Source: an uncultured Candidatus Saccharibacteria bacterium
Lineage (GTDB): Bacteria > Patescibacteriota > Minisyncoccia > Minisyncoccales > GWA2-38-27
Length of the DNA: 62,507 nucleotides
Assembly (NCBI GenBank): GCA_964447515.1
Contig: CAYUSS010000005.1
Location: 1-62,507, forward strand
Direction: 5' to 3'
The number at the start of each line of letters is the position of its first letter. The stretch's first letter is position 1. This document shows positions 8,011-56,111 of this stretch, piece after piece. The translations under genes were made by a program, and so were the position numbers. The notes beneath the pieces are model-generated. The model searched no databases. It saw nothing but the letters and a program-made list of their open reading frames with translations, and had not been told where the DNA came from.

Positions 8011-8880
8011 TTAAAATCTATTCTTGCTACCAAATAATTCTAATTTTTCTTCAACCTTTTTTTGAACCGATTTAATGGCTTGAGGAAGATATTTATAAGG
8101 AGTAATTTCTCTGGTTTTCTCCAATTCTTTCTTTAAGGAAAAGGTGTAGGCCTTTCTAATTTCTGTATTAATGTTTATTTTCACAATGCCTAACTTTATT
8201 GCCTTCCTAATATCATTTAGAGGAATACCTGAACCGCCATGTAAGACCAAAAACTTATCACCAACTTTTCTCTTTATTTCTTCTAACCTTTTTAATCGAA
8301 GCCGGGGGTTAAAACCACTGATTTCTATTCCATGAAAATTCCCAATACTAATTGCTAAACTATCTACTTTTGTCTCTTCAATAAATTTCTGAGCATCGTC
8401 AGGCACAGTTAAATCTTTCTCTTTTATCTTAAATGTTTTTTTGTAAATCTTTGACGATTCTGTGCCTATTGCTCCTACTTCACCCTCAACTAAGACGCCT
8501 TTCTTATGGGCATATCTTACTATCTTTTTAGCATATTTAATATTTTTTTCAAGAGATAATTCTGAGCCATCAAAATGAACTGCTGAATATCCATAATCAA
8601 TAGCTTTTTTTATTAATTTTAAATCTTTCCCATGGTCAAGATTTAAAAAAGCAGGAATATGATATCTCACCTTAGAAATCTCAACTAAAGCGATAGTTTC
8701 TTTTATTCCTAAAAAATTGCTCTCCCCTTCTGAGGTCCCTAAAATCACCGGACTTTTCATTTTTTGAGCAGCAGCCAAAATCCCTCTCAATTGTTCAAAG
8801 GTGGAAAAATTAAACTGGCCGATAGCGTAATGCTTTTTTTGAGCGTCTTTAAGAATTTGTTTTAAGGTTAAATTGGCCAT
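8011..8880 (-). CDS. fba: class II fructose-bisphosphate aldolase
   Basis: LNLDHG, VHFDGS, EGEVG, LAISIGNFHG, LVLHGGSG, KININTE. Confidence 0.93.
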   Translation of the reverse strand: MANLTLKQILKDAQKKHYAIGQFNFSTFEQLRGILAAAQKMKSPVILGTSEGESNFLGIKETIALVEISKVRYHIPAFLNLDHGKDLKLIKKAIDYGYSAVHFDGSELSLEKNIKYAKKIVRYAHKKGVLVEGEVGAIGTESSKIYKKTFKIKEKDLTVPDDAQKFIEETKVDSLAISIGNFHGIEISGFNPRLRLKRLEEIKRKVGDKFLVLHGGSGIPLNDIRKAIKLGIVKININTEIRKAYTFSLKKELEKTREITPYKYLPQAIKSVQKKVEEKLELFGSKNRF

Positions 8881-8929: not shown

Positions 8930-9910
8930 TTAGATACGGATTTTTTCCACTTTCACTCTCCCCCATTTCTCGCTTTTCTTCAATAATCCGTTTTTTGCTC
9001 CCCATTTTTTAAGACAAAAACTAGCGTTAGCCGCGCCTAATTGAACAGCATATTCTATATCTCCTTTTTTTCTAATAAAACCGCTAACAAAACCTGAAGC
9101 AAAAGAATCTCCTGCTCCGGTTCGGTCAACCATCTTTGATTTTAGAATTCCGGCTCTATAAAGTTCTTTTCCCCATGAAACCACTACTCCGGCCGGTCCT
9201 TTAGTCATTACAACAACACCGGGACAAAGTTCGCTAATTTTTCTAAAGATTTGTTTCTCTTTTTGAAAAGGAATTTTAGTAACTAATGAAGCTTCTTCCT
9301 GATTCAAAATTAAAATATCAACTTTTTTAAAGATTCTTTTTAATTTGCTTTTTGGAAGACAAAGCTGGGAATTTCCGGGATTGGCAACAACTTTTATTCT
9401 ATTCCTTTGGGAAAAATTAACCAAATCCTCAAAGATATTACAGAGTTTTCCAGAAAGTGGCGCCAAATAAAACCATTTTGTTTTTAGCTTTTTCCAAGGA
9501 ATTTCTTTCTTTTCTAAAATTTCTGAAGCCCCCCGATAAGCTAAAATCGTCCTGTCTTTTTGGGGTAAGTTTAAAACAACTGAATGATTAGTTGGTTTTA
9601 ATTTTGTTTTTGAAATAAATTGAGTTCCTACGCCAAAACTTTTTAATTCTTCAATTATTTCTTTTCCAGAAATGTCATCCCCTACTCTTCCGCAATAAGC
9701 TGTCTTAAAGCCTTGTTTTGAAAAACTAATTGCTGTGTTTGTTCCTCCACCTCCCGAAGAAAAATATATATCTTGAATATCAACTTTGGATCCTAAATTA
9801 AAACAAATCCCTTTGCCGGTAACAAATTTTTTATTTCTTATCACTTGGAAATTTCTTGCTCTCAAAAAAATATCCCAAGTTGCCGAACCAAATGTAATAA
9901 TGTCGTACAT
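8930..9910 (-). CDS. PfkB-family carbohydrate kinase
   Basis: GGGGTNTA and DRTGAGDSF PfkB signatures. Confidence 0.92.
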   Translation of the reverse strand: MYDIITFGSATWDIFLRARNFQVIRNKKFVTGKGICFNLGSKVDIQDIYFSSGGGGTNTAISFSKQGFKTAYCGRVGDDISGKEIIEELKSFGVGTQFISKTKLKPTNHSVVLNLPQKDRTILAYRGASEILEKKEIPWKKLKTKWFYLAPLSGKLCNIFEDLVNFSQRNRIKVVANPGNSQLCLPKSKLKRIFKKVDILILNQEEASLVTKIPFQKEKQIFRKISELCPGVVVMTKGPAGVVVSWGKELYRAGILKSKMVDRTGAGDSFASGFVSGFIRKKGDIEYAVQLGAANASFCLKKWGAKNGLLKKSEKWGRVKVEKIRI

Positions 9911-9915
9911 ATTAA

Positions 9916-10281
9916 TTATTTTTTATATTTTTTATCATATCCGCCGAGATAAACATTTGTGTGTTTACCTTTTGTCCTTGCAATTGGAAACCTTTTTTTA
10001 TTTTTTTTAATAACTCCTTGAATTGCTTCATCAATATCAATATCACAACTATTTGCTAATATTGCCAAAAACCAAAATATGTCTCCAATATTATCCTTTA
10101 CCTCTTTCTCATTCTCTAAAAGGACTTTTTTAATTATCTCTGGCTCTTGCTCCCATTTAATTATATTTCTAAATTCACCGATTTCTTCAATTATTCCTAA
10201 TAAAAGGTCTTTGGGATTATGAAATTGGTCCCAGTTTCTCTTTTCGCAAAATTTTTTAATTTCTTTTTGATAAGAATTCAT
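9916..10281 (-). CDS. MazG-like nucleotide pyrophosphohydrolase
   Basis: RNWDQFHNPKDL..GIIEEIGE and D..GD motif. Confidence 0.85.
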   Translation of the reverse strand: MNSYQKEIKKFCEKRNWDQFHNPKDLLLGIIEEIGEFRNIIKWEQEPEIIKKVLLENEKEVKDNIGDIFWFLAILANSCDIDIDEAIQGVIKKNKKRFPIARTKGKHTNVYLGGYDKKYKK

Positions 10282-10300
10282 AATTCAGATTTTAAAACTA

Positions 10301-10385
10301 TTAGAAATTTAACGGTGGTTTTGTCTTTTTCTTCTTTGCTAAAATCATAATTGTTTTAATCACTGTATCAGGATTTAAAGAAATT
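10301..10385 (-). pseudogene. relic 3' end of a ppsA allele
   Basis: Translates ISLNPDTVIKTIMILAKKKK; 10350-10385 matches 11457-11492 of the intact ppsA at 31/36 nt. Confidence 0.75.
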
Positions 10386-10504
10386 AAGAATATCTTATCA
10401 AAATATACCAATGATGCGAATTGTAATTCTACCCGCAAAATTCGCATAAAATTCGTAAATTCGGATTATTTAATTATATCGTAAAACCTAAAATATAAAA
10501 TAAA

Positions 10505-11353
10505 TTATTTTTCAATTATTTTGTGTTTTTCCAGGCCTTCGGCGTAAAGTTTTTGGATTTGAGTCAAGTTCAAGGCTTCTTCATAAATGCGGACTCCGTC
10601 GATGAGGCCGTTGAAATAAGAACCACCTCCAGAATGACTATATCTACCTATGTTCAGAGGATTGGTAGTAGATGACAATACAGAAGCGCTCCCGTCAGTT
10701 CCCTTCACTCCATTTATATACACTTTAATAACATTGCTACCATCCCAAGTTCCTACTACATGATACCACTGCCCAACTGAAAGACCATTAGTAAAATAAG
10801 CAAAAGGAACAACGTTGGGAGTAGTAATAAAAAATTTTAAAGTTCCGCCAATACTATTTCGTAAAATCCACCCTTTATAATTCCCGCCATATTTAGTTGC
10901 TATTTCTTGATATGCACTAACACTCTTTGGTTTCACCCACGCCTCAACCGTAATCGCATCAGTAATATTCAAACTCTCATCATTGCCACAATCAACATAA
11001 TCATTCCCCCCGTCAAAATCAAGAGAATTTCCCAAGGCATTATTAGGAGTATCATCTGTCCATTGAGGGCAAGAACCTGTACCCGCAGTACAGGTTCCAT
11101 TTCCTAAGGTTCCATCATTTCCATTGCTGCTCATATCTTTCGCTGTTGTTCCACTACCTTCGTTAAAATCCCAAATACCTACGGCATAAGCTCCGAGAGC
11201 GTGATGAACTTGGGCAGAAAAGTTAAGGCCTTTAGCAATCCTGGCTTTGTCTTTTGCTCCTTTCAAACTAACTAAAACAATACTTGCTAAAAGTCCGATA
11301 ATAGCGATTACTACAAGAAGCTCTATAAGAGTGAAGGATTTTTGCTTTTTCAT
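10505..11353 (-). CDS. type IV pilin-like protein with LamG/laminin-G domain
   Basis: Class III signal KS|FTLIELLVVIAIIG; LDFDG, ITVEAWVKP, GQWYHVVGTWDG, GLIDGVRIY. Confidence 0.9.
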   Translation of the reverse strand: MKKQKSFTLIELLVVIAIIGLLASIVLVSLKGAKDKARIAKGLNFSAQVHHALGAYAVGIWDFNEGSGTTAKDMSSNGNDGTLGNGTCTAGTGSCPQWTDDTPNNALGNSLDFDGGNDYVDCGNDESLNITDAITVEAWVKPKSVSAYQEIATKYGGNYKGWILRNSIGGTLKFFITTPNVVPFAYFTNGLSVGQWYHVVGTWDGSNVIKVYINGVKGTDGSASVLSSTTNPLNIGRYSHSGGGSYFNGLIDGVRIYEEALNLTQIQKLYAEGLEKHKIIEK

Positions 11354-11428
11354 AGTTTATTAAACACAATCTACTGGACATGCGATGTTAGACATTGCAT
11401 GTTAAAATAAATAAAATAGGGATAGTTC

Positions 11429-13852
11429 CTATTTTCTTTTTTTACCTAAATTTAAGATTGTTTTAATCACTGTGTCAGAGTTCAAAGACATTGTCTCTAT
11501 CCCCTCTTTCATTATGAATTCGGCGAAATCAGGCAAATCGCTCGGTGCCTGACCGCAAATTCCAACATATTTTTTTCGCTTCCGGCACACTTTAATTACT
11601 TTTCTAACCTGCTCTTTTACAGCTTCGTTCCTCTCATTTCCCACATAGGCAATTTGAGCATTATCCCTATCTAAGCCTAAGGTCAACTGGGTTAAATCAT
11701 TAGAGCCAATACTCATACCGTCAAAAATATCTAAAAATTTATCAATTAAAATCACATTAGAGGGAATTTCACACATCACATAAATCTTTAATTTTGTAGA
11801 AGCAGATTTACGCGGATGGCTATGCGGATCTAAGCGGATAAGGTCAAATTTCTTCATCAAATCAATGACCTTCTGAGCTTCCTCTACTGTTCGGCAAAAT
11901 GGAATCATTGTAGCAATATTCTTTAAACCGAAAACATTCCTGGCTCTCTTTATGGCTTGACACTCCATTCTGAAAGCAGGCTGGAAATCTTTATCTAAAT
12001 ACCGGCAGGCTCCTCTAAATCCAAGCATCGGATTGGCTTCTTCTCCTTCAAAAAGTTCTCCCCCGATTAAATTCTTATATTCATTTGTTTTAAAATCAGA
12101 AAATCTAACAATAACTTCTTTAGGATAAAAAGCAGCAGCTATCTGGGCAATTCCTTCGGCTAATTCTTTGATAAAAAATTCTTTTTTATCTTTATGCTCA
12201 ATGGTTATTTCTCTAATTTTCTTTTTTATCTTCCGGTTTTTTAATTTATTGAAATGGTAAAGAGCCAGAGGATGAATTTTGATTTTCTCGGCAATAATAA
12301 ATTCTTCCCTGGCTAAACCTACTCCATCCACAGGCAAAAAAGAGCTTTTAAAGGCAATCTCCGGCGCTCCGATATTGAGCATTATCTTTGCTTTCAATTT
12401 AGGAACCTTTTTAAGGTCGTATTTTTTAATTTGAAAAGGAATTTTGCCTTCAAAAATCCTGCCGCTTAATCCTTGAGTGCAATCAACAGTAACTGTTTGA
12501 CCAGTTTTTAAAACCTTAGTGGATTTTTCAGTACCAACGATACAGGGAATGCCAAGTTCCCTGGAGATAATTGCGCTGTGGCAGGTCTTGCTACCCTCAT
12601 CAGTAATAATGGCTGAAGCCATAGTCATAATTGTCGTCCAGTCAGGGTCTGTCATTTTGGTTACCAGCACCTCGCCTTTTTTGAATTGGCCGATTTTTGA
12701 AACATTGTAAATTATATGAACAGGACCTGTGCCAACTTTATCCCCAATAGCAGTGCCGGTTAAAATCGGTTTTTTCTTAGATTTAATTTCGTATTCTTCA
12801 TAAACTTTACCAATTTTGGGAGCGTGAACTGTTTCCGGCCTTGATTGGACGATAAAAAGTTCTCCTGTCTTTCCGTCTTTTGCCCATTCAATATCCTGAG
12901 GCATCCATTTTTTAAATTTTTCAGAATAATGTTTTTCAATAATTACGGCCCATCTGGCTAAAGTTAAAATATCTTTATCGTCCAAGGAAAACTGAAGCTG
13001 TTTGTTTTCGGAAACTTTAACTTTTTTTATCCCCCCCTTTTTGCTATAAACATATTTTACCGCCTTTCTGCCCAAATCTTTTCTAATAATAGCTTTATAG
13101 TTTTGCTTTAAAGTCGGTTTAAACACATAAAATTCATCCGGGGTAATCCTCCCCTTTACAATCATTTCTCCGATTCCCCAGATTGAGTTGATTAAAACAA
13201 TATTAGAAAAACCTGTTTCGGTGTCTAAGGTGAACATTATTCCTGAAGAAGCTAAATCAGACCTTACCATTTTTATAACTCCAATTGAAAGGCCAAATTT
13301 CAATTGTTTAATTTTCTTATCATATCGATAAGCAATGGCGCGGTCGCTAAAAGTTGAGGCTACGCATTTTTTTATCGCTTCAAATAATTTTCCTTTCCCT
13401 TTTACATTTAAATATGTTTCAAACTGCCCGGCAAAAGAAGCATTAGGCATGTCTTCGCAGACACCGGATGTTCTAACGGCTACATCAAGATTCTCGCCAT
13501 ACTTTTTTTCAAGTTTTTGATAAGCGCCAAAAATTTCTTCTTTTAATTCCTCGGGAAGTTCCCCTTTTAAGATAAGCACCCGGGATTTTCTTCCGGTTTC
13601 TTGAAGGCTTTTTATGCTTTCCGGGTCAAATTTTTTAAAGATTTTTTTTAACTCTTTATCAATTTTATTGGCTTTCAAAAACTTCCAATAGGCATTTGTA
13701 GTTAAAACAAAACCATCAGGAATATTTATTCCTTTTTTGGAGAGTTCTCTACACATCTCTCCTAAAGAAGCATTTTTCCCTCCTGCTAAAGGAACGTCTT
13801 TGTAAGAAATTTCTTTAAGCCATAAAATATTTTTTTGTGATTTCTTTTTCAT
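11429..13852 (-). CDS. ppsA: phosphoenolpyruvate synthase
   Basis: GGKNASLGEM, QDIEWA, phospho-His motif TCHSAIISRELG, EANPMLGFRG, GICGQAPSD. Start set at MKKK (13852). Confidence 0.96.
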   Translation of the reverse strand: MKKKSQKNILWLKEISYKDVPLAGGKNASLGEMCRELSKKGINIPDGFVLTTNAYWKFLKANKIDKELKKIFKKFDPESIKSLQETGRKSRVLILKGELPEELKEEIFGAYQKLEKKYGENLDVAVRTSGVCEDMPNASFAGQFETYLNVKGKGKLFEAIKKCVASTFSDRAIAYRYDKKIKQLKFGLSIGVIKMVRSDLASSGIMFTLDTETGFSNIVLINSIWGIGEMIVKGRITPDEFYVFKPTLKQNYKAIIRKDLGRKAVKYVYSKKGGIKKVKVSENKQLQFSLDDKDILTLARWAVIIEKHYSEKFKKWMPQDIEWAKDGKTGELFIVQSRPETVHAPKIGKVYEEYEIKSKKKPILTGTAIGDKVGTGPVHIIYNVSKIGQFKKGEVLVTKMTDPDWTTIMTMASAIITDEGSKTCHSAIISRELGIPCIVGTEKSTKVLKTGQTVTVDCTQGLSGRIFEGKIPFQIKKYDLKKVPKLKAKIMLNIGAPEIAFKSSFLPVDGVGLAREEFIIAEKIKIHPLALYHFNKLKNRKIKKKIREITIEHKDKKEFFIKELAEGIAQIAAAFYPKEVIVRFSDFKTNEYKNLIGGELFEGEEANPMLGFRGACRYLDKDFQPAFRMECQAIKRARNVFGLKNIATMIPFCRTVEEAQKVIDLMKKFDLIRLDPHSHPRKSASTKLKIYVMCEIPSNVILIDKFLDIFDGMSIGSNDLTQLTLGLDRDNAQIAYVGNERNEAVKEQVRKVIKVCRKRKKYVGICGQAPSDLPDFAEFIMKEGIETMSLNSDTVIKTILNLGKKRK

Positions 13853-13872
13853 AAGATAAATGACTTTATTTT

Positions 13873-14391
13873 CTACTGACATCCCTGGCACATTCCAATA
13901 GTAATGCCACTGTAGTTAAAATAATGACCATCACAAGCTGTCACGCCTGGACTAGTTATATCCGGTTTTTCCAATTTATAAACCAACATATACCATTGCT
14001 GGGAACAACCATAACCCAAGGAGAAATAGCAATAATTATATTTGCCGCTCCCAGCCCAACCAGTTGTATCGTTGATTGGGTCCTTGGGAAGAGTAACTTC
14101 ATTGCTGAATTTGCTTTGGAGGATATTCCAGCTAGCGTCTCCACTATTGCTCCAGCCACCATTTGGAGAACTCGCTCCCCCTGAAGCAGGATATTCTTCG
14201 TTCTCCGCGTAATACACCTCTAATGCCGTCATTATTTGTCTTATTTCTGCTTTTCTTCTCGCATCTCTGGCTTTTTCTCTTGCCCCCTTTAAACCAACCA
14301 AAACAATGGAAGCCAAAAGACCGATAATGGCAATAACTACTAAAAGTTCGATAAGGGTAAACGATTTTTGTTTCTGCCTAAATTTTTGCAC
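13873..14391 (-). CDS. type IV pilin / GspG-like protein
   Basis: KS|FTLIELLVVIAIIG, ARDARRKAE, LPKDP. Confidence 0.9.
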   Translation of the reverse strand: MQKFRQKQKSFTLIELLVVIAIIGLLASIVLVGLKGAREKARDARRKAEIRQIMTALEVYYAENEEYPASGGASSPNGGWSNSGDASWNILQSKFSNEVTLPKDPINDTTGWAGSGKYNYCYFSLGYGCSQQWYMLVYKLEKPDITSPGVTACDGHYFNYSGITIGMCQGCQ

Positions 14392-14465
14392 AATTAACTG
14401 TTAAAATTGAGGATTTAAACATAAGCTTATAATTTTTAAACTAAGCTCATGTTTAAATTGAGGAT

Positions 14466-15503
14466 TTAAACACTAATTTTTAGAGCTTTAATTTTTTTAG
14501 CTATTGCCAATTCCTCATCTGTTTTTATGGTTAAGATTTTAGTATTTTCTAAAATAGTTAAATTCTTACAAATGCTATTTCTAATCTTAGCAGAACCCGA
14601 ACCAATTGCCCCGGTAAATATTAATAAATCGCATCCTTCTAAAATAGCAAAATAAGCCCCGATATATTTTTGAATTTTATAAATAAATATTTCCAAGGCA
14701 AGTTTTGCTTTTTTGTCTCCTGTTTTAGCTTTTTTTAAAACTTCCAGCATCTCTCCTTCCCCGCTAATCCCTTTTATGCCTGATTCAATGTTTAAAAGTC
14801 TGTCGGTTTCTTTCACAGAAAAATTTTTAACAAGTTCTAAAACAATACCAGAATCAATATCGCCACAACGAGTCATCATTACCAACCCTTCCATTGGGGT
14901 AAAGCCCATTGAGGTGTCAATTGCTTTTCCGTTTTTTATAGCAGTAATGCTGGCTCCTCCGCCTAAATGACAGGTAATGATTTTCAATTTTTCAAATGGC
15001 TTTTTTATCTTTTTGGCTGCTGTTTTAGCTACATATTCATGAGAAATTCCATGAAAACCAAACCTTTGAAATCTATATTTCCTTCTTATATTTTCTGGTA
15101 AAGGATAAATATAAGCTTTTTTTGGTAAATTAGAATAAAATTCAGTGTCAAAAACAGCAATCTTGGGAACTCGGGGAAAAATTTTCTTGGCAATCTTTAT
15201 TCCTAAAACATTAAAAGGATTATGCAAAGGAGCTAATTTATTAAATTTTTCTAATTCTTTTAAGATTTTCTTATTTATTTTTATTGGTTTTTTAAATTTC
15301 TCTCCCCCGTGAACAACCCGATGTCCGATTATCCGGATATCTTTTTTATAGTTATCTAACTTATTTAATTCTTTTGTCAAAAAATTTTGATAATCTTTAG
15401 GATTAAAAACTTCTCTTTTCCCCTTTTTTATTAATTTTAAATCCTTCTTCTTAAACAACTTCCACTTTATTGACTGACTTCCGCAATCTAAAACTAAAAT
15501 CAT
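14466..15503 (-). CDS. ackA: acetate kinase (compact form)
   Basis: LDCGSQSIK, GHRVVHGG, LAPLHNP, GFHGISH, HLGGGAS, DTSMGFTP. Confidence 0.95.
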   Translation of the reverse strand: MILVLDCGSQSIKWKLFKKKDLKLIKKGKREVFNPKDYQNFLTKELNKLDNYKKDIRIIGHRVVHGGEKFKKPIKINKKILKELEKFNKLAPLHNPFNVLGIKIAKKIFPRVPKIAVFDTEFYSNLPKKAYIYPLPENIRRKYRFQRFGFHGISHEYVAKTAAKKIKKPFEKLKIITCHLGGGASITAIKNGKAIDTSMGFTPMEGLVMMTRCGDIDSGIVLELVKNFSVKETDRLLNIESGIKGISGEGEMLEVLKKAKTGDKKAKLALEIFIYKIQKYIGAYFAILEGCDLLIFTGAIGSGSAKIRNSICKNLTILENTKILTIKTDEELAIAKKIKALKISV

Positions 15504-16072
15504 AACAAAATTTCTCCTTTACCTTTTTTATTTATTCCGGCGGCGTTTCCTTCGTCAGTATCAAGGTGCATGCAGAGTCTATCGCCCTCACCTATTCTTA
15601 TTACAACATTATGAAATGTTAATCCTCTATCACCGCCGCATTTAACAGAAACCATAATTCTATCTTTGAATCCTAATTTTTCTGCTTCTTGGGGATTGCA
15701 GTGAATATGCCGCCAAGCAATTATTACTCCTTTTCTTAATTCTACTTCTCCCCTTGGGCCTATTAAAACTAACCCCGGGGTTCCTTCTAAATCCCCGGAA
15801 ACCTTAATTGGCGGATTTAATCCTAAATTAATGGCATCGGTTAAAGAAAGTTCTACTTGCGTTTCCTCTCTCGGCGGACCTATAATTCTTACTCCGGAAA
15901 ACCTTTTTCCGTTATAAAAAATATCTAATGTTTCCTGGGCCGCAAACTCAGGCGGTTCAGTAAGATCCTTAAATTTTTTAAGTTGATAATTTTCTCCAAA
16001 AAGAATACCTAAGTTCTTTTGAGAAAGATGAATATGCCTGGCTGAAATCTCAATTGGAATCTTCTTTTCCAT
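15500..16072 (-). CDS. pduL: PduL-type phosphate acyltransferase
   Basis: SARHIHL, RHIH, MHLDTDEGNAA; translationally coupled to ackA. Confidence 0.92.
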   Translation of the reverse strand: MEKKIPIEISARHIHLSQKNLGILFGENYQLKKFKDLTEPPEFAAQETLDIFYNGKRFSGVRIIGPPREETQVELSLTDAINLGLNPPIKVSGDLEGTPGLVLIGPRGEVELRKGVIIAWRHIHCNPQEAEKLGFKDRIMVSVKCGGDRGLTFHNVVIRIGEGDRLCMHLDTDEGNAAGINKKGKGEILL

Positions 16073-16157
16073 AATTAATTTTTGATTAAACTTGTTTTGC
16101 TTATTATACCTCTTTTTAAAAAAAATAAAAAATATTTCTAAACTCTATTGAAAATAA

Positions 16158-17321
16158 TTATTTTAATTCTAAATTTAATATTCTATCTATTTCCTCAGTA
16201 ATTTTTTTTACTACTATACTCCCGCCAAAATAAGTCAAATGTATACCATCTGAAATTCGAGCTAATTTATACCTCCCTCCATTATCAAGTAAATAAGAAG
16301 CATAATTACTTTCAGAATCGGCTAATAAACTCCAAGTTGAAAGGAAATAAACGTCTTGATGACTTTCAGCTTCTCTTTCATAAATCGAATTAAGATTATT
16401 TATTTTGTTGGAATATGGTTTATCTCTCATAATAGGAAGTCCTATCCAAAAAACAATAATATTTTTTTCTAAAAAAATCTCTGACAAATATGATACTCTT
16501 TCACCATATCCTTTATTCCACCCCGATGCTCCATAATTTTTAATAAATTTTCCGTCTGGAATTGATAATGATTGAGGATCATTTGCTCCAAACATAACTA
16601 TAGCTAAGTTCGGCTTGTATAAAGAAATAAGCTTTATAGTTTCTACATTCCAATTAAAATAGTCGGGTCTGGAAAGCCCGCTGGAAACCTTTCCCTCTCT
16701 TATAACCTCTACATTTTTATATGTTAAAAGCTCTCTTTCTAAAATATCCCCTACTCCTCCGCCGGTAGCTATGAAAGAATTTCCTATAATTAAAATCCTT
16801 AAAGGTAATTCGGGTCCTAAAATTAATTTATCGGCAGTAGCCTCTTTTGGAAGATGTTCTTCTTCTTTAGAAACTATTGCTTTTTCTTCAACTTTTTTTT
16901 CCGCTTCGGAGTCTTTTATAGTTTGTGGTTTCTCTACAACTTTAGTTTTCTCTGCTTCTTTTAATTTTTCTACCTTTTGTTCTATCAAACCAGTTATTTC
17001 TCTTTTAAGTATCTCTTCGGGATATTCTATATGAAAAACTAAAGGAGACTCTTTTATCTTAGCCCAAAAAGCATGTTCTTTTTTAAAAAACTTATTTAAA
17101 TCAAAAATTTCTTTTAGTTTTTCTGATTCATAGGCATATAATAAGATTGAAGATTGGAATATATTGCTTCCTTTAACTTCTTCTTGAATTCCCCATCTTA
17201 TAACTCTTTTTGATTCATAAAAAGGGACAATAACAATAATCAACAAAAAAAGTAAAATAACTTTTTTGTAGTTAGAAAGATTAAATTCTTTATCTGGGAA
17301 TTGATAATTAACCTCTTCCAT
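16158..17321 (-). CDS. DUF459/SGNH hydrolase-like O-acetyltransferase partner (PatB/AlgJ-like)
   Basis: GNS block I, SSGLSRPDYFNW, GAND, DGIH; directly downstream of the MBOAT gene. Confidence 0.8.
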   Translation of the reverse strand: MEEVNYQFPDKEFNLSNYKKVILLFLLIIVIVPFYESKRVIRWGIQEEVKGSNIFQSSILLYAYESEKLKEIFDLNKFFKKEHAFWAKIKESPLVFHIEYPEEILKREITGLIEQKVEKLKEAEKTKVVEKPQTIKDSEAEKKVEEKAIVSKEEEHLPKEATADKLILGPELPLRILIIGNSFIATGGGVGDILERELLTYKNVEVIREGKVSSGLSRPDYFNWNVETIKLISLYKPNLAIVMFGANDPQSLSIPDGKFIKNYGASGWNKGYGERVSYLSEIFLEKNIIVFWIGLPIMRDKPYSNKINNLNSIYEREAESHQDVYFLSTWSLLADSESNYASYLLDNGGRYKLARISDGIHLTYFGGSIVVKKITEEIDRILNLELK

Positions 17322-17329
17322 ATTTTGAA

Positions 17330-18790
17330 CTAAAAGTTGAAATAGATAAAAGACGGTACGGTATCGGGGCTAAGTTTAAATATTAATATTAGGGTTGCAA
17401 TTATAAACAAAAGCCAAAAAACTAAAGATAGCTTGTCTTGAATTTTTACCATGGTTTTAATGACTTCTTTTTCAAATAGAAAAAGCAAAAAGCCGATAAT
17501 CATAACAACTAAAATATAAAGCTTAAATGGTTCAATAGTTTTTCCGAAATTAAAAATGGATTTTATAAAAATAAAAATATTTTCTTTACCTTCTATTCGA
17601 AAAAATATCCAACTAAAGGAAACAAAAACAAAAGTGCTAAAACAACACAGTGCTTTTTTGGCAATACTGTTTTTCTTATTCAAATTTTTTCTGGTTAGAA
17701 AACTAATGTTTTCTTTTTTATAATCCTGTCTGTTTAACTTTCTATCTTTATAATAATGGGTTCCAGCTAAAGCTAATCCATGAAGAAATCCCCAAAAAAT
17801 AAAATGCATCTTTGGTCCATGCCAAAAACCAATTAAAGTCATAGCCACAATTAAATTAAAATATTTCCTTTTTCTCCCTTTTCGGTTTCCGCCCAAAGGA
17901 ATATAAACATAATCTCTAATCCAACTTGAAAGAGACATATGCCATCTTCTCCAAAACTCTTTAATATTTGAAGCTAAATAAGGAGTGTTGAAATTAATCG
18001 GCGATTTAAATCCCATTAATCCAGAAAAACCAATAGCTAGATCGCTGTAAGCACTAAAATCAAAATAAATAACTAATGAATAAGCAAAAATTGTTAACAC
18101 TATAACAGGGCTTGCAAAAGATTCTGGAATAGCAAAAACATCAAAGGTTAAATTTAAAACAAGATAACTTGAAATAACCAATTTTTTAAAAAGACCCAAT
18201 AAAATTAAAGTAACATTCTCATTTAAATTTTCTATTTTCCTTGCTCCCCCGTCTTTAAGCTGAGTTAAAAAATCTTTAGCCCGCATTATTGGGCCGGAAA
18301 GAAGTTGTGGGAAAAATGCAACATAAACTAAAAAATTAACAAAAGGTGCGGGTACTATTTTTTTTGAATAAACATCGATATTGTAAGAAATCGTCCTAAA
18401 AATATAAAAAGACAACCCTATTGGCAAAATTATTTCAACAAGAGGAAAAGTAACTAAAATGCCAATTTTTTCTAATAATAATTCCGCCGAGCTTCGAAAA
18501 AAATCATAATATTTAAATAATCCCAATACATAAATATTACCGATAATTGCTAATATCAACATCGGTTTACTTCTGCTAAAAGAGTTTTTATAAATTAAAT
18601 AAGCAGTAAAAAAATTAAAGATAGAAGTTGCGAAAAGGATTACCAAAAAATGGATATCTAAAAATAAATAAAAAATATAACTTGAAAAAAGCAACCATAA
18701 ACGCCAAAAAAGAGGCCAACGTTTTAAAAACCAATTTAAAATTAAAACAAGAGTAAAAAAAATAAAAAAGCCAAAAGTAAAAAAATTCAT
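17330..18790 (-). CDS. MBOAT O-acyltransferase (AlgI/PatA-like)
   Basis: LPIGLSFYIF, FFPQLLSGPI, YFDFSAYSD, FWRRWHMSLSSWIRDYVYIPLGG, GFWHG. Confidence 0.92.
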   Translation of the reverse strand: MNFFTFGFFIFFTLVLILNWFLKRWPLFWRLWLLFSSYIFYLFLDIHFLVILFATSIFNFFTAYLIYKNSFSRSKPMLILAIIGNIYVLGLFKYYDFFRSSAELLLEKIGILVTFPLVEIILPIGLSFYIFRTISYNIDVYSKKIVPAPFVNFLVYVAFFPQLLSGPIMRAKDFLTQLKDGGARKIENLNENVTLILLGLFKKLVISSYLVLNLTFDVFAIPESFASPVIVLTIFAYSLVIYFDFSAYSDLAIGFSGLMGFKSPINFNTPYLASNIKEFWRRWHMSLSSWIRDYVYIPLGGNRKGRKRKYFNLIVAMTLIGFWHGPKMHFIFWGFLHGLALAGTHYYKDRKLNRQDYKKENISFLTRKNLNKKNSIAKKALCCFSTFVFVSFSWIFFRIEGKENIFIFIKSIFNFGKTIEPFKLYILVVMIIGFLLFLFEKEVIKTMVKIQDKLSLVFWLLFIIATLILIFKLSPDTVPSFIYFNF

Positions 18791-18900
18791 AGGATAAATA
18801 ACATTAATTTATTATATCCCCTGCCAAAAAGACTTTCCAAATCTTTCTGGCTCAAATGAATATGCCGAGCTGAAACCTCAATTGGATTTTTTTTATTCAT
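18787..18900 (-). pseudogene. relic 5' end of a pduL allele (37 aa)
   Basis: MNKKNPIEVSARHIHLSQKDLESLFG versus intact MEKKIPIEISARHIHLSQKNLGILFG; its TGA overlaps the MBOAT ATG. Confidence 0.85.
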
Positions 18901-18980
18901 AAAACTTTTGAACCTGTTATATTATTATAGCCTAAAAATTCTGAAGAAAAAGCTGCCCATGGGGATAACCAATATCATTT

Positions 18981-19037
18981 ATCAACGAGGCCCGTCCTCG
19001 TTGATTTTACCTCCGCATACCGGTATGCGGAGGTAAA
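18981..19037. repeat. two adjacent palindromes
   Basis: ATCAACGAGG-5 nt-CCTCGTTGAT (same arms at 3152-3176), then a perfect 32-bp palindrome TTTACCTCCGCATACC|GGTATGCGGAGGTAAA. Confidence 0.85.
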
Positions 19038-19123
19038 CTGAAAGTATACGGGATTATCTCGTATAAATAAAAAAAAATGGCTCAAAAAGATTGAGCCACT
19101 CTTGCCGGGCTTGCTTCAAAGGA

Positions 19124-19366
19124 CTAAGTAGCTTCCATAACTTTCTGTGGTTCATCCTGTTTCATCAAGCCATTGCCTATAAAACAGACCTTAAGTTGGT
19201 TTCCCAATGCCTTATGTCCCTACATGGTAACCGCTGAAGAATCAACTCCACCAGACAGGGTAATAATAACAGAATCTTTTCCAACTATTTTTGATATTTC
19301 CCTTACTTTCCTCTCTATAAACTCTCCAGCATTTAATTCCTACGCTGTTATTTTTTTGTTTTCCAT
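19124..19366 (-). pseudogene. GMP synthase subunit B / PP-loop ATPase N-terminal pseudogene
   Basis: MENKKITA*ELNAGEFIERKVREI...TLSGGVDSSAVTM*GHKALG...GNGLMK; two in-frame TAG stops and truncation after 80 codons. Confidence 0.8.
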
Positions 19367-19388
19367 CTCCTTGCCTCCTTTATTTTCC

Positions 19389-19562
19389 TTACAGATATCT
19401 AATTACTCTTTCTAAATACTCCAGGCTGAATTCTTTCTCCGGGCAAGAATAAACTATCACGCCTTCTCGCAATAAAAGACGAAAAGGCACTCTCCTTTTC
19501 CCAACTCTCTCTTTTTTAAGTTGATATCCTGGAGGCAGTGTAAAGTCATCGCCCTGATTCAT
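19389..19562 (-). CDS. small hypothetical protein (57 aa), missing from the ORF track
   Basis: AAAGGAG RBS, MNQGDDFTLPPGYQLKKERVG...; TTGACA-17-TAATCT upstream at 19605-19633. Confidence 0.5.
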   Translation of the reverse strand: MNQGDDFTLPPGYQLKKERVGKRRVPFRLLLREGVIVYSCPEKEFSLEYLERVIRYL

Positions 19563-19709
19563 TTTTTTCTCCTTTATTAAGTTTTGCTTCGTTGTACTAC
19601 TATCAGATTATCAAACTAGCTTGTAACTGTCAAGAAAAATTAAAAAAAGTGTGCGGGAAAAGGTCCCGCACAAACATATACTACATTCTCCACGGCCGTA
19701 GGAAATGTA

Positions 19710-20717
19710 TTACAATTTTTTTCCGATGAATTCGGCGAATTCGGCTAATCGGCAGGCATAGCCGTATTCATTATCATACCAGCTGACAACCTTAATTAAG
19801 TTGTCTTGAACCATTGTCTGGGGAGCATCAACGATTGTTGAATAGGTATCACCGATAAAATCTGTGGAAACCAGGGGTTCTTCTTCTATTCTCAAAATCC
19901 CTTTAAGTTTCTCAGTTTCAGATGCTTTTTTAAAGGCATTATTCACCTTTTCAACATTAGTAGCTTTTTCCACTTTTACAACTAAATCTAAAATCGAAAC
20001 CGTGGGCGTAGGAACCCGAAGAGCAATCCCATTTAATTTACCCTCTAATTCAGGAATAATTTTTCCGATTGCTTTGGCCGCTCCGGTGGTGGTAGGAACA
20101 ATATTTAAAGCAGCGGCTCTGGCTCTTCTTAAATCTTTATGAGGTAAATCTAAAATTCTCTGATCGGTAGTGTAGCTATGGATAGTGGTCATAAATCCTT
20201 TCTCAATTACAAAATTATCATTTAAAACCTTTACTGTCGGGGCTAAGCAATTAGTAGTGCAAGAGCCCATATCAATAATATCATCTTTCTCTGGCGCAAA
20301 TTTTTCTTCATTTACACCCAAAACAAAACCCGGAATTTCTGGACTTTTTCCCGGAGCTGAAATAATCACTTTTTTAGCTCCAGCTTTAATATGTTTCTTT
20401 GCTCCTTCTAAATCTCTAAAAACTCCTGTGCATTCTAAAACCACATCCACCCCTAAATCTTTCCAAGGCAGCTTTTCCGGGTCCTTCTCTTCAAAAACTC
20501 TAAATTTCTTTCCATTAACCGTAATACTCTCTTGGTCAAATTCCATTTCTTTGTCATATCTTCCATAGACAGAATCATATTTTAAAAGATGGGCCAGAGT
20601 TTTGTTGTCTGTTAAGTCATTGATTGCCACAACCTCCAAATCCGGATGATTTTCTATAATCCTCCGAAATGTTGGCCGACCAATCCGACCGAAGCCATTG
20701 ATAGCAATTTTAACCAT
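19710..20717 (-). CDS. gap: type I glyceraldehyde-3-phosphate dehydrogenase
   Basis: AINGFGRIGR, SCTTNCL, SWYDNEYGY. Start set at MVKIA. Confidence 0.97.
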   Translation of the reverse strand: MVKIAINGFGRIGRPTFRRIIENHPDLEVVAINDLTDNKTLAHLLKYDSVYGRYDKEMEFDQESITVNGKKFRVFEEKDPEKLPWKDLGVDVVLECTGVFRDLEGAKKHIKAGAKKVIISAPGKSPEIPGFVLGVNEEKFAPEKDDIIDMGSCTTNCLAPTVKVLNDNFVIEKGFMTTIHSYTTDQRILDLPHKDLRRARAAALNIVPTTTGAAKAIGKIIPELEGKLNGIALRVPTPTVSILDLVVKVEKATNVEKVNNAFKKASETEKLKGILRIEEEPLVSTDFIGDTYSTIVDAPQTMVQDNLIKVVSWYDNEYGYACRLAEFAEFIGKKL

Positions 20718-20725
20718 AGAAATTG

Positions 20726-20977
20726 TTATTCTTGGATATTTAATAATCCACAAATTTTCTCTTTATCAAAACCAACCACGACTTGACCATCTATATCAAC
20801 AACCGGCACTCCCATCTGGTCCGATTTCTTTACCATCTCATCCAAAGCCGATTTATCTTTTGAAACATCAATATCTTCAAATTCAATATTATACTCTTTT
20901 AAGAATTGTTTCAAGGTAAGGCAATACGGACACATACTTGTACTATATACCCGAACTTTCGGTTGTTTATTATTCAT
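20726..20977 (-). CDS. glutaredoxin-like protein (NrdH/YruB family)
   Basis: CPYC, QMGVPV, VVGFD. Confidence 0.9.
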   Translation of the reverse strand: MNNKQPKVRVYSTSMCPYCLTLKQFLKEYNIEFEDIDVSKDKSALDEMVKKSDQMGVPVVDIDGQVVVGFDKEKICGLLNIQE

Positions 20978-23002: not shown

Positions 23003-23024
23003 CTAAATTATGTTCAAGGGCGGG

Positions 23025-23047
23025 TGTTCAAGGTCGGGTCTTGAACA
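23025..23047. repeat. hairpin element providing the eno stop (family D)
   Basis: TGTTCAAGGTCGGGTCTTGAACA, identical at 26171-26192; encodes FKTRP* on the minus strand. Confidence 0.85.
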
Positions 23048-24955: not shown

Positions 24956-25972
24956 TTATTTTTGTTTTTGAATATATCCATAAGCGGCTAAGGCAGCTTT
25001 GGCTCCTTCACCGCAGGCAGTGATAATTTGCTTGTATTGACCAATATTTACATCGCCTACCGCAAATAGTCCTGGAGTTTTGGTTTGACAGGTTTCAAAC
25101 TCAACTTTTATTTCGTCTTTTTCATTAAATTCAACCAAACCCTTAACAAATGCGGTTGCCGGCTGGCTTCCAATTTCCACAAAAACACCCTCAATAGATA
25201 AGGTTTTTTCTTCTTTAGTTTTCCGAGATTGATAAACCATTGATTCTACAAACTTTTTGCCTTTAATTTCTTTCAGAGCAGCATTTGTTATTATTTCTGC
25301 TTTTTTAGTTTTCTTTATAATTTCCTGGTTTGTTTCATCAGCGCTAACTCGGGGACCATATTCTAAAATATAAATTTTTTTAACATAATTTGACAAAAAT
25401 ATCGCTGATTCAAAACCGGCGTTTCCTCCTCCAATAACTGCCACTGTTTTGTCAGCAAATAACACTCCGTCACATATGCTGCAATAACTCACGCCCTTTC
25501 CGATAAATTCTTCTTCACCAGGAACCTCTAAGGGCCGAGGGTCGGCTCCTGAAGCTACAATTATTGCTTTTGCCTGAAATTCTTTTTTATTTTTAGTAGA
25601 AACTAAAAAATCATTGTTTGTTTTTTTAACCCCGTTAAATAATTTCGCCTTCGGCGAAATTCCCGCTTTACGGGATTTAACAGGGTAAATTTTTTTTACT
25701 TCATCAATTTTAATTTCAACTTGCCCGCCCAAGTTTTTCTCCGAAAAACTTGGGCGGGCAAACTTTTTCAAATGGTTTTCAAATTTTTGAATAAGTTCTT
25801 GGCCTGAAATTTTTTCAAATCCAGGATAATTTTCAATAGCAACAGCTTTTTTTACTACCTGACCGCCAAAACTTTTGGTGATTAAAAGAGTATTTAATTT
25901 TTGTCTGGCAGCATAAATTCCAGCTGTAATTCCGGCCGGACCACCACCAATAATTATAAGGTCATAAATCAT
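24956..25972 (-). CDS. trxB: thioredoxin-disulfide reductase with two in-frame palindrome insertions
   Basis: IIGGGPAG, GKGVSYCSICD, VIGGGNAG, GLFAVGDV. Confidence 0.93.
   Translation of the reverse strand: MIYDLIIIGGGPAGITAGIYAARQKLNTLLITKSFGGQVVKKAVAIENYPGFEKISGQELIQKFENHLKKFARPSFSEKNLGGQVEIKIDEVKKIYPVKSRKAGISPKAKLFNGVKKTNNDFLVSTKNKKEFQAKAIIVASGADPRPLEVPGEEEFIGKGVSYCSICDGVLFADKTVAVIGGGNAGFESAIFLSNYVKKIYILEYGPRVSADETNQEIIKKTKKAEIITNAALKEIKGKKFVESMVYQSRKTKEEKTLSIEGVFVEIGSQPATAFVKGLVEFNEKDEIKVEFETCQTKTPGLFAVGDVNIGQYKQIITACGEGAKAALAAYGYIQKQK
25629..25689. repeat. family C element (TIR ACCCYGTTARAT...ATYTAACRGGGT) in-frame in trxB
   Basis: Outer stem plus two inner hairpins; near-identical to 30722-30775 in ftsZ; both encode GISPKAKLFN. 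Confidence 0.9.
25721..25761. repeat. family A palindrome in-frame in trxB
   Basis: TTGCCCGCCCAAGTTTTTC-TCC-GAAAAACTTGGGCGGGCAA; peptide ARPSFSEKNLGGQ. Confidence 0.92.
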
Positions 25973-26173
25973 AGAAAATAGTTATCGGAAAATAAGAACC
26001 TTTCGTCGCTTCGCTCCTCAAGAACCTTGATTCGCTAAGGAATAATCATATATTCTTGAATTAGAAAATGGTAATAGAAACTAAAAATTGAAAAATAGTA
26101 AATTCACTAATTTCTAATTTCCATTTTACATAACTAATTTCCAATTTTTTACGGGATGTTCAATGTCGGGTGT

Positions 26174-27049
26174 TCAAGGTCGGGTCTTGAACAAAACTTC
26201 AGGGATTGCCTCAATTAAATCTGTTGCCATTAGTGATTCCCCTAATTTTTCAGCTGCCAATCTTCCGGCCGAGCTATTAATAAAAGCGGCGGCTTGGCCT
26301 GCTTCAAACGGACTAATTCCTCTTGACATTAAAGCCCCGGCAATGCCGGCTAAAGTATCCCCTGTGCCGCCAACCGTCAATAAAGGCGAACCAATCTTTG
26401 AAAGAGCGGTTTCTTGACCGTTAGAAATTATATCTATTTTTCCTTTAAGTAAAATTGTGGTTTTAAGGCGCTCAGCTTGCTCTTGAACTATTTTTATTTT
26501 CTCCTCGTCAGAAAATTTGGATATATCTTTTCCTGTCAAAACAAAAAACTCATAACTATGAGGAGTAATCAAAAAAGGTTTTTGAGATATAATTTTTGGA
26601 TTCTTGCTTAAAGCATGAATTCCATCGGCATCAATTACTATAGGCAGAGAAACCTGCGATAGATATTCTAAAATTGTATCCTGGGTTTCCTCTGATCTTC
26701 CCGTTCCCCCACCAATCACTACAGCTGTTTTTCCTCGGGCAACCGCTTTAGCTGACTCTGTCATTGAAATCAAGATACTCAAGTGTTCTTTATTTAAGCG
26801 AATCCCTTCAAGGGGATAGGCTGCTAAATCAGGAGTAAAAGAAGCAATTATATTGGCTGCTCTCTTCGGGGCAATGATTTTAACCATATCTACTCCTGCT
26901 TTAAAAGCGGCCAAAGCTGAAAAAGCCGGCGAACCGCTGTAAAACTCAGAGCCTCCAATAACTAATAAAAGTCCGTAATCGTATTTCTTGACATCAGCCG
27001 GTCTTTTTTTATAAATGTTTTTTAAAATAGATTTGGTAACTTCTAACAT
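26174..27049 (-). CDS. nnrD: NAD(P)H-hydrate dehydratase (YjeF C-terminal)
   Basis: KYDYG.LLVIGGS..YSG, VIDADG, LITPH..EF, GGTGDTLAG. Start set at MLEVTK. Confidence 0.9.
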   Translation of the reverse strand: MLEVTKSILKNIYKKRPADVKKYDYGLLLVIGGSEFYSGSPAFSALAAFKAGVDMVKIIAPKRAANIIASFTPDLAAYPLEGIRLNKEHLSILISMTESAKAVARGKTAVVIGGGTGRSEETQDTILEYLSQVSLPIVIDADGIHALSKNPKIISQKPFLITPHSYEFFVLTGKDISKFSDEEKIKIVQEQAERLKTTILLKGKIDIISNGQETALSKIGSPLLTVGGTGDTLAGIAGALMSRGISPFEAGQAAAFINSSAGRLAAEKLGESLMATDLIEAIPEVLFKTRP

Positions 27050-28085: not shown

Positions 28086-28253
28086 ATAAATTTTATTAGA
28101 AATTAGAATTTTCTACTAGTGTAGAAATTGCTTTATTAAATTTAGCCTGTTTTTGGCTGTTCATGGTTTTTGTATTTTCTTTTAGTTTTTTTATTTTGTT
28201 TTTACGAATTTCGTTTATGGTGGACATAGATTTTCCTCTACTTCTATTCTAGC

Positions 28254-28958
28254 TTATTTTATTTTTCTTTTTAAATAATCTTGAGCTTCTTTTTCAAAAT
28301 ATTCTTTTATTTTGTTTGGCTTATAAAATTCTTTTTTGAATATCAAGGGTTTAATCTCATTTAACCTTGCTGCTCCTTCTAAAATTTTACTCACCAATAA
28401 AACTGGGTCTATCTCTACTCCGAATTTCTTCTTGACCCATTTTAAAATTGTAAGAAATTTAATTTTCTTTTTTTTAAAAATACAATAAAGATCAAAAACA
28501 TCTTTTGCTTCGGCTCGTTCAAAAATAGTATGGGTCTTATTGGCTAACATGTCTTCAATTGCATCAATTTTAATATTAAACTCTTTAAGCTTTAATGGTC
28601 TTTTAATCTTGGGAAAAGGATAAAACACGAACTCAATTTTCAAAACTTCTCTATTCTTTTTAAACCAAAATTGGTGACGATTAAATTTTTTTTGTTCTTC
28701 AATTTCTTTAATTTTTAAGCTCTTGGCAATTTTTTTAATCTGACTTAAAAGATAATCATCTGCCAGTAAATCTTTTGATAAAAAATCTAAATCCTGGGAC
28801 TTACGATGGGAAAGATATTGATAAGCAAGGGCAGTTCCACCCGACCAAACAAAATAAGAACCGAGTTTACTCTTCCCAATTTCTTTTAGTGCTTCTTTTT
28901 GAAAAGGGGTTAGAACTTTATCCGGCACCTTTTTATTTTTATTAATAATATTAGTCAT
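28254..28958 (-). CDS. AbiEii/AbiGii-family nucleotidyltransferase toxin
   Basis: SGGTALAYQYLSHRKSQDLDF, ANK, R...KDVFDL. Confidence 0.85.
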   Translation of the reverse strand: MTNIINKNKKVPDKVLTPFQKEALKEIGKSKLGSYFVWSGGTALAYQYLSHRKSQDLDFLSKDLLADDYLLSQIKKIAKSLKIKEIEEQKKFNRHQFWFKKNREVLKIEFVFYPFPKIKRPLKLKEFNIKIDAIEDMLANKTHTIFERAEAKDVFDLYCIFKKKKIKFLTILKWVKKKFGVEIDPVLLVSKILEGAARLNEIKPLIFKKEFYKPNKIKEYFEKEAQDYLKRKIK

Positions 28959-42365: not shown

Positions 42366-42521
42366 ATTTTTTTACCCTGTTAAATACTGTTTTACGGCAA
42401 TTTTGCCAAAGACAAAATTATTTAACAAGGTGAATTATTAATAATAAATCTCTTTTTGCCCTTTCTTAAATTTTACCACAATTAAAAATCCAAGGCAATC
42501 TGCTCGCTGATGAAAAAGGTG

Positions 42522-55135: not shown

Positions 55136-55167
55136 TCCCTTTGTCGTCTATTGTTATAGAGAGAATG

Positions 55168-55196
55168 TTGACAGCGGAAAATCAGTTTGCTAAAAT
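55168..55196 (+). promoter_or_regulatory. sigma70 promoter
   Basis: TTGACA-17-TAAAAT. Confidence 0.7.
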
Positions 55197-56109: not shown

Positions 56110-56111
56110 TT

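Follow-up and report, generated by a model that had tools for sequence, protein, structure and literature searches.

Organization of the ppsA–pfkB region

The window analysed here, a term used throughout for the whole stretch of 62,507 nt (62.5 kb), comes from an uncultured Candidatus Saccharibacteria bacterium with an AT-rich genome of 36% GC (GenBank assembly GCA_964447515.1, contig CAYUSS010000005.1, positions 1–62,507 of the forward strand), and our subject is a ppsA gene in it whose 3′ end occurs twice, on either side of a pilin gene. All genes of this region lie on the minus strand. The ppsA gene (11429–13891) is intact and encodes an 820-residue phosphoenolpyruvate (PEP) synthase (pyruvate, water dikinase) with the Pfam domains PPDK_N, PEP-utilizers and PEP-utilizers_C; its last 20 codons (11433–11492, MSLNSDTVIKTILNLGKKRK) constitute the working copy of the repeat, as delimited by direct reading of the sequence and by blastn. 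A spacer of 75 nt (11354–11428), characterized by RNA folding, separates the ppsA stop codon from an inserted gene for a LamG-domain type IV pilin-like protein of 282 residues (10505–11353; Pfam N_methyl and Laminin_G_3). Beyond the pilin stop codon lie an AT-rich spacer of 119 nt (10386–10504, 24% GC) and a 20-codon pseudogene fragment (10326–10385, ISLNPDTVIKTIMILAKKKK), which profiles of ppsA ends recognize as a ppsA 3′ end that has been displaced. A leader of 44 nt (10282–10325) then precedes mazG (9916–10281; Pfam MazG), which encodes a MazG-type nucleoside triphosphate (NTP) pyrophosphohydrolase of 121 residues. The next gene encodes a pfkB-family sugar kinase (8930–9910), assigned from the Pfam PfkB match recorded for identical contigs and from tblastn synteny. 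Gene callers sometimes also report a 48-codon open reading frame (ORF) encoding 48 residues that spans the displaced tail (10301–10447).

A second ppsA 3′ end downstream of the pilin gene

The two ppsA ends form a direct repeat of 60 nt (10326–10385 and 11433–11492) with 46 of 60 positions identical (77%; blastn E = 8.6e-7 within the window). An earlier reading made from the DNA letters alone, hereafter the sequence-only reading, had proposed a 31/36-nt match between 10350–10385 and 11457–11492, a tail and stop codon belonging to the downstream copy just before mazG, and the order ppsA with a first tail, pilin, ppsA′ with a second tail; all three hold on direct reading. The core of the repeat has five mismatched positions among its 36. 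Read on the minus strand, the downstream copy encodes ISLNPDTVIKTIMILAKKKK and the working copy MSLNSDTVIKTILNLGKKRK followed by a stop codon, so the working ppsA carries a different end from the displaced one. The frame of the downstream copy continues for seven extra codons to a stop at 10301–10303, 19 nt ahead of the mazG ATG (10281). A perfect core of 17 nt common to both copies (ACAGTGATTAAAACAAT) encodes the near-invariant TVIKTI, and because this is the most conserved coding stretch, conservation alone can explain the identity.

The AT-rich genome inflates short matches, but the possibility of a chance match, a generic repeat or a mis-assembly is negligible on the following grounds. A 22-nt core, ATTGTTTTAATCACTGTRTCAG, has only two sites in the window with up to three mismatches allowed and was found in 0 of 100 shuffled sequences. 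Profiles give E-values of the order of 1e-8 to 1e-9: a protein profile of relatives' ppsA ends matches the downstream copy with E = 2.2e-8, and a nucleotide profile (nhmmer, 148 relatives, window excluded) does so with E = 3.5e-9, aligned over 10384–10328. Among about 160 related loci compared by tblastn synteny (labelled L001 and so on), the sequence is always a ppsA end, and not the generic repeat of many unrelated loci that the sequence-only reading had allowed for. Separate salt-marsh samples have the same gene order and identical proteins, as seen in two Joint Genome Institute (JGI) assemblies and no fewer than four from Logan. Since at least six independent assemblies agree and their depth is even, the arrangement is not an assembly artefact. 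It is fixed and nearly invariant across all samples examined, with almost no single-nucleotide polymorphisms (SNPs), and the runs that contain the exact window sequence are salt-marsh metagenomes.

Weak pairwise and tblastn similarity extends upstream of the remnant to about 10420–10445 and includes conserved F, A and I residues and a GICG-like stretch. The nucleotide profile gives this extension no support, its homology ending at 10384 with an envelope to 10405. As judged from these alignments, only 10326–10385 can be regarded as an established remnant, with the junction placed provisionally at 10385/10386.

The downstream copy is a genuine ppsA C-terminus, dead and displaced. All 20 residues of its peptide are states found in the working ppsA tails of 132 distinct relatives, mostly the majority residue, and its homology to real tails ends exactly at the position of the relatives' stop codon, where the stop has been replaced and the frame stays open to 10301. 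The 14 nucleotide differences between remnant and working tail affect seven codons synonymously and six non-synonymously, with most of the six in the variable Lys-rich end, and the nonfunctional copy shows no degenerate change at any conserved residue. Its identity to the working tail of its own genome (77%) is lower than that to the tails of other lineages (86–90%), namely 90% over 50 nt (45/50) for a co-occurring low-depth relative, 87.5% over 56 nt for L107 and 86% over 57 nt for L164 and L025. Because the remnant keeps a flawless consensus peptide at 23% divergence and is nearer to the tails of other lineages, the two tails must have diverged under purifying selection in separate lineages, one of them being imported by recombination. 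The good preservation of the remnant further means that the event was recent relative to neutral decay. The remnant is without function; its region has no significant fold (z = −0.5), and a promoter scan gave nothing above shuffles.

Direct repeats around 1.1 kb of DNA could in principle arise in situ, by a short tandem or slipped copy of the ppsA end made in this genome and diverging later, with the pilin gene arriving independently between the copies. Such a local origin is very improbable, given that 14 of 60 nt differ yet the dead copy has no degenerate change at conserved residues, and that the remnant is nearer to the tails of other species than to that of its own genome. Further duplicated ppsA tails, sought among the roughly 160 relatives with a regular expression and with a protein profile on six-frame translations, were found only in the window's own strain and in L155, which is described below.

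The ppsA/pfkB junction in relatives and the position of mazG

Further genes surround this region on the same strand: gapA (19710–20753), pduL (15500–16072), ackA (14466–15503) and a small pilin gene (13873–14391), all assigned by Pfam, and fba (8011–8880), recorded for identical contigs. Synteny across relatives identifies gapA-pduL-ackA-ppsA-pfkB-fba as a conserved block in this group. The best ppsA relatives in public genomes share 79–81% protein identity, and the ppsA relatives all belong to Paceibacterota, Nealsonbacteria or generic Patescibacteria metagenome-assembled genomes.

The end of ppsA and the start of pfkB could both be seen in 92 distinct relatives. In 76 of these, the ppsA stop codon is no more than 150 nt from the pfkB start, and the usual distance is 1–8 nt; because the two genes abut in this way, the LamG pilin gene and mazG are both insertions at the ppsA/pfkB junction. 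Two of our eleven salt-marsh runs (X1 and X2 of X1–X11) contain the co-occurring relative mentioned above, at a depth of 3–4. It has a ppsA (...LREGIESMSI...) with a remnant-type tail, TAA, 8 nt and the pfkB ATG, its contigs lack window positions 9912–10325, and its tail probably ends in ...AKKKK before the stop. This relative is known only from contigs placed against the window and was not recovered as a full contig among the matches listed by the metagenome scan or from protein searches; a protein search with a 46-residue composite tail matched only contig-edge or frameshifted ppsA fragments.

Together with its 44-nt leader, mazG represents a second insertion, placed exactly between the old ppsA stop position and the pfkB start. 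That mazG itself was inserted follows from the abutment of ppsA and pfkB in relatives and from its closest homologues (about 75% identical), which occur in unrelated neighbourhoods. A profile of 120 MazG sequences found no mazG near ppsA among the roughly 160 relative loci, the sole other mazG near the block being at a different junction, in L028 (5096–5461), between gapA and pduL; with that position, mazG also lands at other junctions of the conserved glycolytic cluster. The ancestor predicted by the sequence-only reading, with a ppsA ending in ...KTIMILAKKKK directly followed by mazG, was found neither among the matches listed in the genome and metagenome ppsA scans nor, by tblastn and the MazG profile, among the roughly 160 loci.

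Mosaic structure of ppsA and a model for pilin acquisition

Comparison of ppsA along its length revealed a change of affinity near the 3′ end. Over codons 446–700 the closest relative is L001 (79% nucleotide identity), whereas over codons 701–800 L072 and L090 (83%), L063 (80%), L101 (79%) and L167 (75%) form the group of relatives and L001 falls to 72%. Outside the last 100 codons, L063 is only 63–67% identical to the window ppsA. L063, L072 and L090 have an identical amino-acid tail, FAEFIMKEGIETMSLNSDTVIKTILNL, of the same type as the working tail of the window, and a pilin gene directly follows ppsA in L101 and L167, two of the four lineages of the codon 701–800 group with downstream sequence visible. 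The gene thus appears to be a mosaic in which the last ~100 codons differ in phylogenetic affinity from the middle. L072 and L001 likewise share 91% identity over codons 230–445 and only 72% over codons 701–800. The comparisons point to frequent homologous exchange within ppsA among related Candidate Phyla Radiation (CPR) bacteria.

The reading we favour, at a rough probability of 0.5, is that recombination anchored in ppsA brought in a foreign ppsA end together with the pilin gene. The incoming DNA, from a related, distinct lineage, would have comprised the 3′ portion of the donor's ppsA and, behind it, a gene for a LamG-type pilin. Of the two joints, one would have been a homologous crossover inside ppsA and the other illegitimate, about 60 nt before the resident stop codon and presumably at 10385/10386. 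The product would be an intact ppsA with an imported end, followed by the pilin gene and by the stranded last 20 codons of the resident gene; a separate insertion would have put mazG between the old stop codon and pfkB. A homology anchor on one side only would correspond to homology-facilitated illegitimate recombination (HFIR) after DNA uptake. The model fits because the 3′ region of ppsA is mosaic and because the pairing of a ppsA end with a pilin gene occurs in L101 and L167. Natural competence has been shown experimentally in another CPR lineage, Saccharibacteria (PMC10633639). We infer the identity of the resident copy, a mechanism of the HFIR type and DNA uptake as the entry route. The proposal of the sequence-only reading that the pilin gene was acquired through anchoring in ppsA is in this respect the best-fitting mechanism, given the pattern of tail divergence and the mosaic 3′ end; its assignment of one tail as old is indirect.

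Several points weigh against this model. The evidence for competence comes from Saccharibacteria and not from this organism, whose window, despite its three pilin genes, yielded no recognizable competence machinery. No donor was found, and the nearest relatives are only about 75–83% identical in ppsA; because the relatives are too distant and the searches returned no donor, neither the breakpoint within ppsA nor microhomology at the joint can be pinned. No strain-level empty site was found, and the other pilin insertions at the ppsA/pfkB junction in relatives are all without a scar. The mosaic shift is modest, about 2 to 2.5 standard deviations (SD), and the reference lineages are themselves mosaic, so that the direction of transfer is ambiguous because L072 is mosaic relative to L001. 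The lineage closest in the 3′ region, L072/L090, has no downstream pilin gene.

The polarity of the event could also be reversed. The working tail and the pilin gene would then be resident, in the order ppsA-pilin-pfkB seen in L030, L094 and L167, and a fragment from inside another lineage's ppsA tail would have been imported with mazG, anchored in pfkB. The tail type shared with the nearest 3′-region relatives (L072, L090 and L063) agrees with this, as do the several relatives with a LamG pilin gene directly between ppsA and pfkB, and mazG behaves as a floating gene, found at another block junction in L028 and having a GC content of 27%, below that of its neighbours. However, none of the roughly 160 loci has the order ppsA-mazG-pfkB, and the closest MazG homologues lie in unrelated contexts. 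The relative with a remnant-type tail has no mazG, and the 5′ end of its pfkB is about 82% identical to that of the window (52/63 nt), no better than background. In addition, the pilins adjoining ppsA in relatives are not orthologues of the window pilin (34–45% identity, compared with 53% for the best homologue elsewhere). We consider a reversed event quite unlikely.

The inserted segment

Within the insert (10386–11432, 1.1 kb), the pilin gene is the sole ORF. Its product matches N_methyl above the curated cut-off (E = 4.6e-9), with a prepilin cleavage/methylation motif and hydrophobic helix (KSFTLIELLVVIAIIGLL), and Laminin_G_3, a concanavalin/LamG-like domain, over residues 114–267 (E = 1.6e-31). 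This architecture is common to more than 1,300 homologues, of which the closest are at most 53% identical; the best homologue, P0002 (52% identical), does not adjoin ppsA. The GC content and third-position GC (GC3) of the pilin gene are unremarkable, and mazG and the MBOAT/DUF459 pair described below are somewhat AT-richer; these values are not decisive on foreignness.

The two spacers differ in structure. The ppsA–pilin spacer (−18.1 kcal/mol, z = −3.3) contains a terminator-like hairpin at about 11413–11435, which starts in the last ppsA codons, overlaps the stop codon and is followed by a U-rich run, and a second hairpin at about 11369–11412. The pilin–remnant spacer (10386–10504) has no significant structure. 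It contains three tandem CGAATTT(T) units at about 10432–10463 and an inverted AATTCGCA at about 10415–10422, and the units may reflect slippage, a binding site or decayed ppsA sequence near the GICG motif. Neither spacer matched any relative locus fetched.

The same anatomy might be the footprint of a site-specific mobile element, either an integrase island or a free-standing homing endonuclease gene, that targeted the 3′ end of ppsA with a replacement tail and whose mobility gene was lost or replaced, or of a module mobilized in trans. The arrangement is exactly that of icd/icdC around the prophage e14 (PMC13626634), and fungal mitochondrial homing endonuclease ORFs are flanked by C-terminal duplications of their host genes (PMC6279837). 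In the relative L155 (positions 1–2200 of contig Ga0172366_10027395), ppsA has an atypical end, ...SMSLSPDAVIKTILNLAKYQK before the stop, and an ORF of 337 residues with a LAGLIDADG_3 match (E = 4e-8) overlaps that stop; beyond it come about 35 codons of consensus ppsA tail in a displaced position, FHKFAEFLIKEGIESISLNPDTVIKKILNLAKIK before the stop, and an FBPase_3 gene. This anatomy, which places an endonuclease ORF between two tails of the same gene as in the window, is the reason why the ppsA 3′ end of some Patescibacteria seems to be a homing endonuclease target. The perfect 17-nt core shared by the window copies would also suit a target site, and immediately upstream of the core 4 of 12 nt in the imported tail depart from consensus, as those of a cleavage-resistant allele might.

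Against such a footprint, the ORF list and Pfam revealed no integrase, transposase or endonuclease ORF or fragment in the 1.1-kb insert, and a tblastn search with the L155 endonuclease had no match in the window. The spacers are only 75 and 119 nt long and resemble nothing in relatives, the duplication boundary differs (about 20 codons here, about 35 in L155), and the 17-nt core is no more than the best-conserved part of the coding sequence, TVIKTI. Excision joints were not seen in at least 10 samples, on contigs only: none in X1–X11 joins 10350–10385 to 11457–11492 at a likeness of at least 93%, and contigs drop rare variants. The only recombinase found in the window (59550–61235) is of the large serine type and lies 48 kb away. 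Large serine recombinases are not known to make long duplications. On balance a mobile-element footprint is unlikely, and ppsA-anchored import of the pilin gene is retained as the preferred reading.

Other pilin insertions and other scars

Pilin genes occur at the ppsA/pfkB junction in at least 5–7 of the 92 relatives, and others lie at ackA/ppsA and pfkB/fba. A ppsA-tail protein profile on six-frame translations detected no scar beside relatives' pilins at block junctions. Of the three pilin genes in the window, the two others have no flanking duplicates. The stretch between ackA and the small pilin gene (14392–14479) contains two copies of a 23-nt unit, TGTTAAAATTGAGGATTTAAACA, spaced 51 nt apart and set in an imperfect palindrome of 88 nt, with one copy over the ackA stop; they could represent a terminator or a small duplication at this other pilin junction.

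The other scar named by the sequence-only reading lies at pduL. The duplication of the pduL 5′ end is real (15996–16074 against 18824–18902, 73% over 79 nt, E = 3.7e-9), and the remnant (18814–18902) comprises the first ~27 pduL codons, MNKKNPIEVSARHIHLSQKDLESLFGRGYN compared with MEKKIPIEISARHIHLSQKNLGILFGENYQ, at 73% nucleotide and 72% amino-acid identity. The insert (16158–18790) contains no pilin gene; it carries genes for envelope-modifying enzymes, an MBOAT acyltransferase (17330–18790) and a DUF459/SGNH protein (16158–17321), with the remnant upstream of the MBOAT gene. In relatives, gapA directly precedes pduL, and neither MBOAT nor DUF459 is present there. No long ORF is present in the 800 nt that separate gapA from the pduL remnant (18903–19709). 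Their translation, interrupted by stops, has an SGGVDSS PP-loop motif (...VIITLSGGVDSSAVTM, stop, GHKALG...), and the stretch resembles a decayed gene for a PP-loop ATPase of the GMP-synthase or QueC type.

A possible third scar pairs 28101–28164 with 29874–29936 (75% nucleotide identity; borderline blastn E = 7e-5). One copy is the first ~17 codons of an ORF with a weak PsbP_2 match (29289–29936), and these recur just upstream of an NTP-transferase gene; an AbiEii toxin gene (28254–28958, Pfam E = 1.4e-17) lies between the copies. Other repeats in the window are of a different sort. A hairpin-forming intergenic repeat, TGTTCAAGACCCGACCTTGAACACCCG..., follows eno and a carbohydrate-kinase gene (23010–23047 and 26156–26193, 95% identical), further repeats of this sort lie at 25634–25689, 30723–30778 and 42371–42434, and a second family has the sequence GGAATTTCGCCGAAGGCGAAATT. 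All look like terminator or repetitive extragenic palindromic (REP)-like elements, and none like a duplicated gene end. At 53327–61235, in a window otherwise coded on the minus strand, a group of genes on the plus strand has the look of a mobile element that has integrated, or of what is left of a prophage, judging from its content: several ORFs without a Pfam match, a DUF5659 protein, a CHC2 zinc-finger primase-like gene (56269–56910), the large serine recombinase of 561 residues and direct repeats of 46 nt (55220–55265 and 55695–55740).

Conserved glycolytic genes are reasonable candidates for anchors, and the window shows this twice. The broader claim of the sequence-only reading, that such anchoring is a general way for this lineage to swap surface genes, has not been demonstrated, as no scars accompany relatives' pilins and the other scars flank MBOAT/SGNH or LAGLIDADG genes. 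The pduL scar, the floating mazG, the recurrent pilin insertions at the same junctions and the mosaic ppsA together suggest that these lineages gain genes to an important extent by recombination, anchored in conserved genes, with DNA of diverged relatives, and such a route would fit their presumed reliance on DNA uptake. More speculatively, and with little likelihood in our view, the ends of conserved glycolytic genes might be portable recombination handles in Paceibacteria-like CPR bacteria. Pilins, mazG and MBOAT/SGNH pairs would then travel fused to replacement ends, by DNA uptake and without a recombinase of their own, and the gapA-to-fba junctions would form a dedicated platform for surface-gene exchange; two scars 7.3 kb apart, the floating mazG and a ppsA 3′ module common to pilin-bearing lineages would be its traces.

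The ppsA scar is genuine and of a known kind. It offers a concrete, datable trace of the gain of a candidate adhesin by an ultra-small, host-dependent bacterium, inside a strongly conserved operon-like block, with an essential-looking metabolic gene left undisrupted and no mobile-element machinery visible. Coming from a poorly studied lineage, it is informative on gene gain in CPR bacteria and unsurprising to specialists. Its practical value is modest, as a marker for recent acquisitions in metagenome-assembled CPR genomes and as a warning that short 'ORFs' such as 10301–10447 are remnants of gene ends and not genes.

Comparison with known systems

In Escherichia coli K-12, the cryptic prophage e14 (and likewise phage 21) supplies a substitute 3′ end for icd and leaves the original end as the pseudogene icdC (PMC13626634; Hill et al. 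1989 as cited there). As in the window, a gene of central metabolism is kept intact, its old 3′ end becomes a short pseudogene beyond the insert, and the two ends are similar, non-identical direct repeats. However, e14 is 15 kb long, has its own integrase and excises, whereas the window insert of 1.1 kb has one pilin gene, lacks a recombinase and shows no sign of excision.

Free-standing homing endonuclease genes in fungal mitochondrial atp6 and cob are accompanied by a duplicated C-terminal segment of the invaded gene (PMC6279837). The order of gene with new end, inserted ORF and displaced old end is the same, and L155 shows it likewise at ppsA. In the window, by contrast, a pilin gene and not an endonuclease gene lies between the copies, and 20 codons are duplicated compared with about 35 in L155.

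Variable surface loci between conserved genes are familiar from the pneumococcal capsule locus (dexB–aliA), the O-antigen locus (galF–gnd) and the Pseudomonas aeruginosa pilA region. There, as here, surface or adhesin genes lie between conserved housekeeping genes that can serve as anchors across lineages. Those loci are fixed and present in all strains, whereas the junction studied here is mostly empty and its insertions are scattered, single-gene and non-orthologous.

The process to which we liken the ppsA scar is known as HFIR, a term used in PMC6382021. In HFIR a stretch of homology anchors one end only, and no homology is involved in joining the other, which would account for the intact mosaic ppsA, the foreign DNA and the abrupt junction at 10385/10386. 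Reportedly, it was described in natural transformation of Acinetobacter, Streptococcus pneumoniae and Pseudomonas stutzeri by de Vries and Wackernagel and by Prudhomme et al., both in 2002. HFIR is defined experimentally with known donors, whereas we infer the present case from the DNA sequence. Published HFIR events usually delete recipient DNA; here, by contrast, the joint would lie upstream of the gene end, so that 60 nt were kept as a duplicate.

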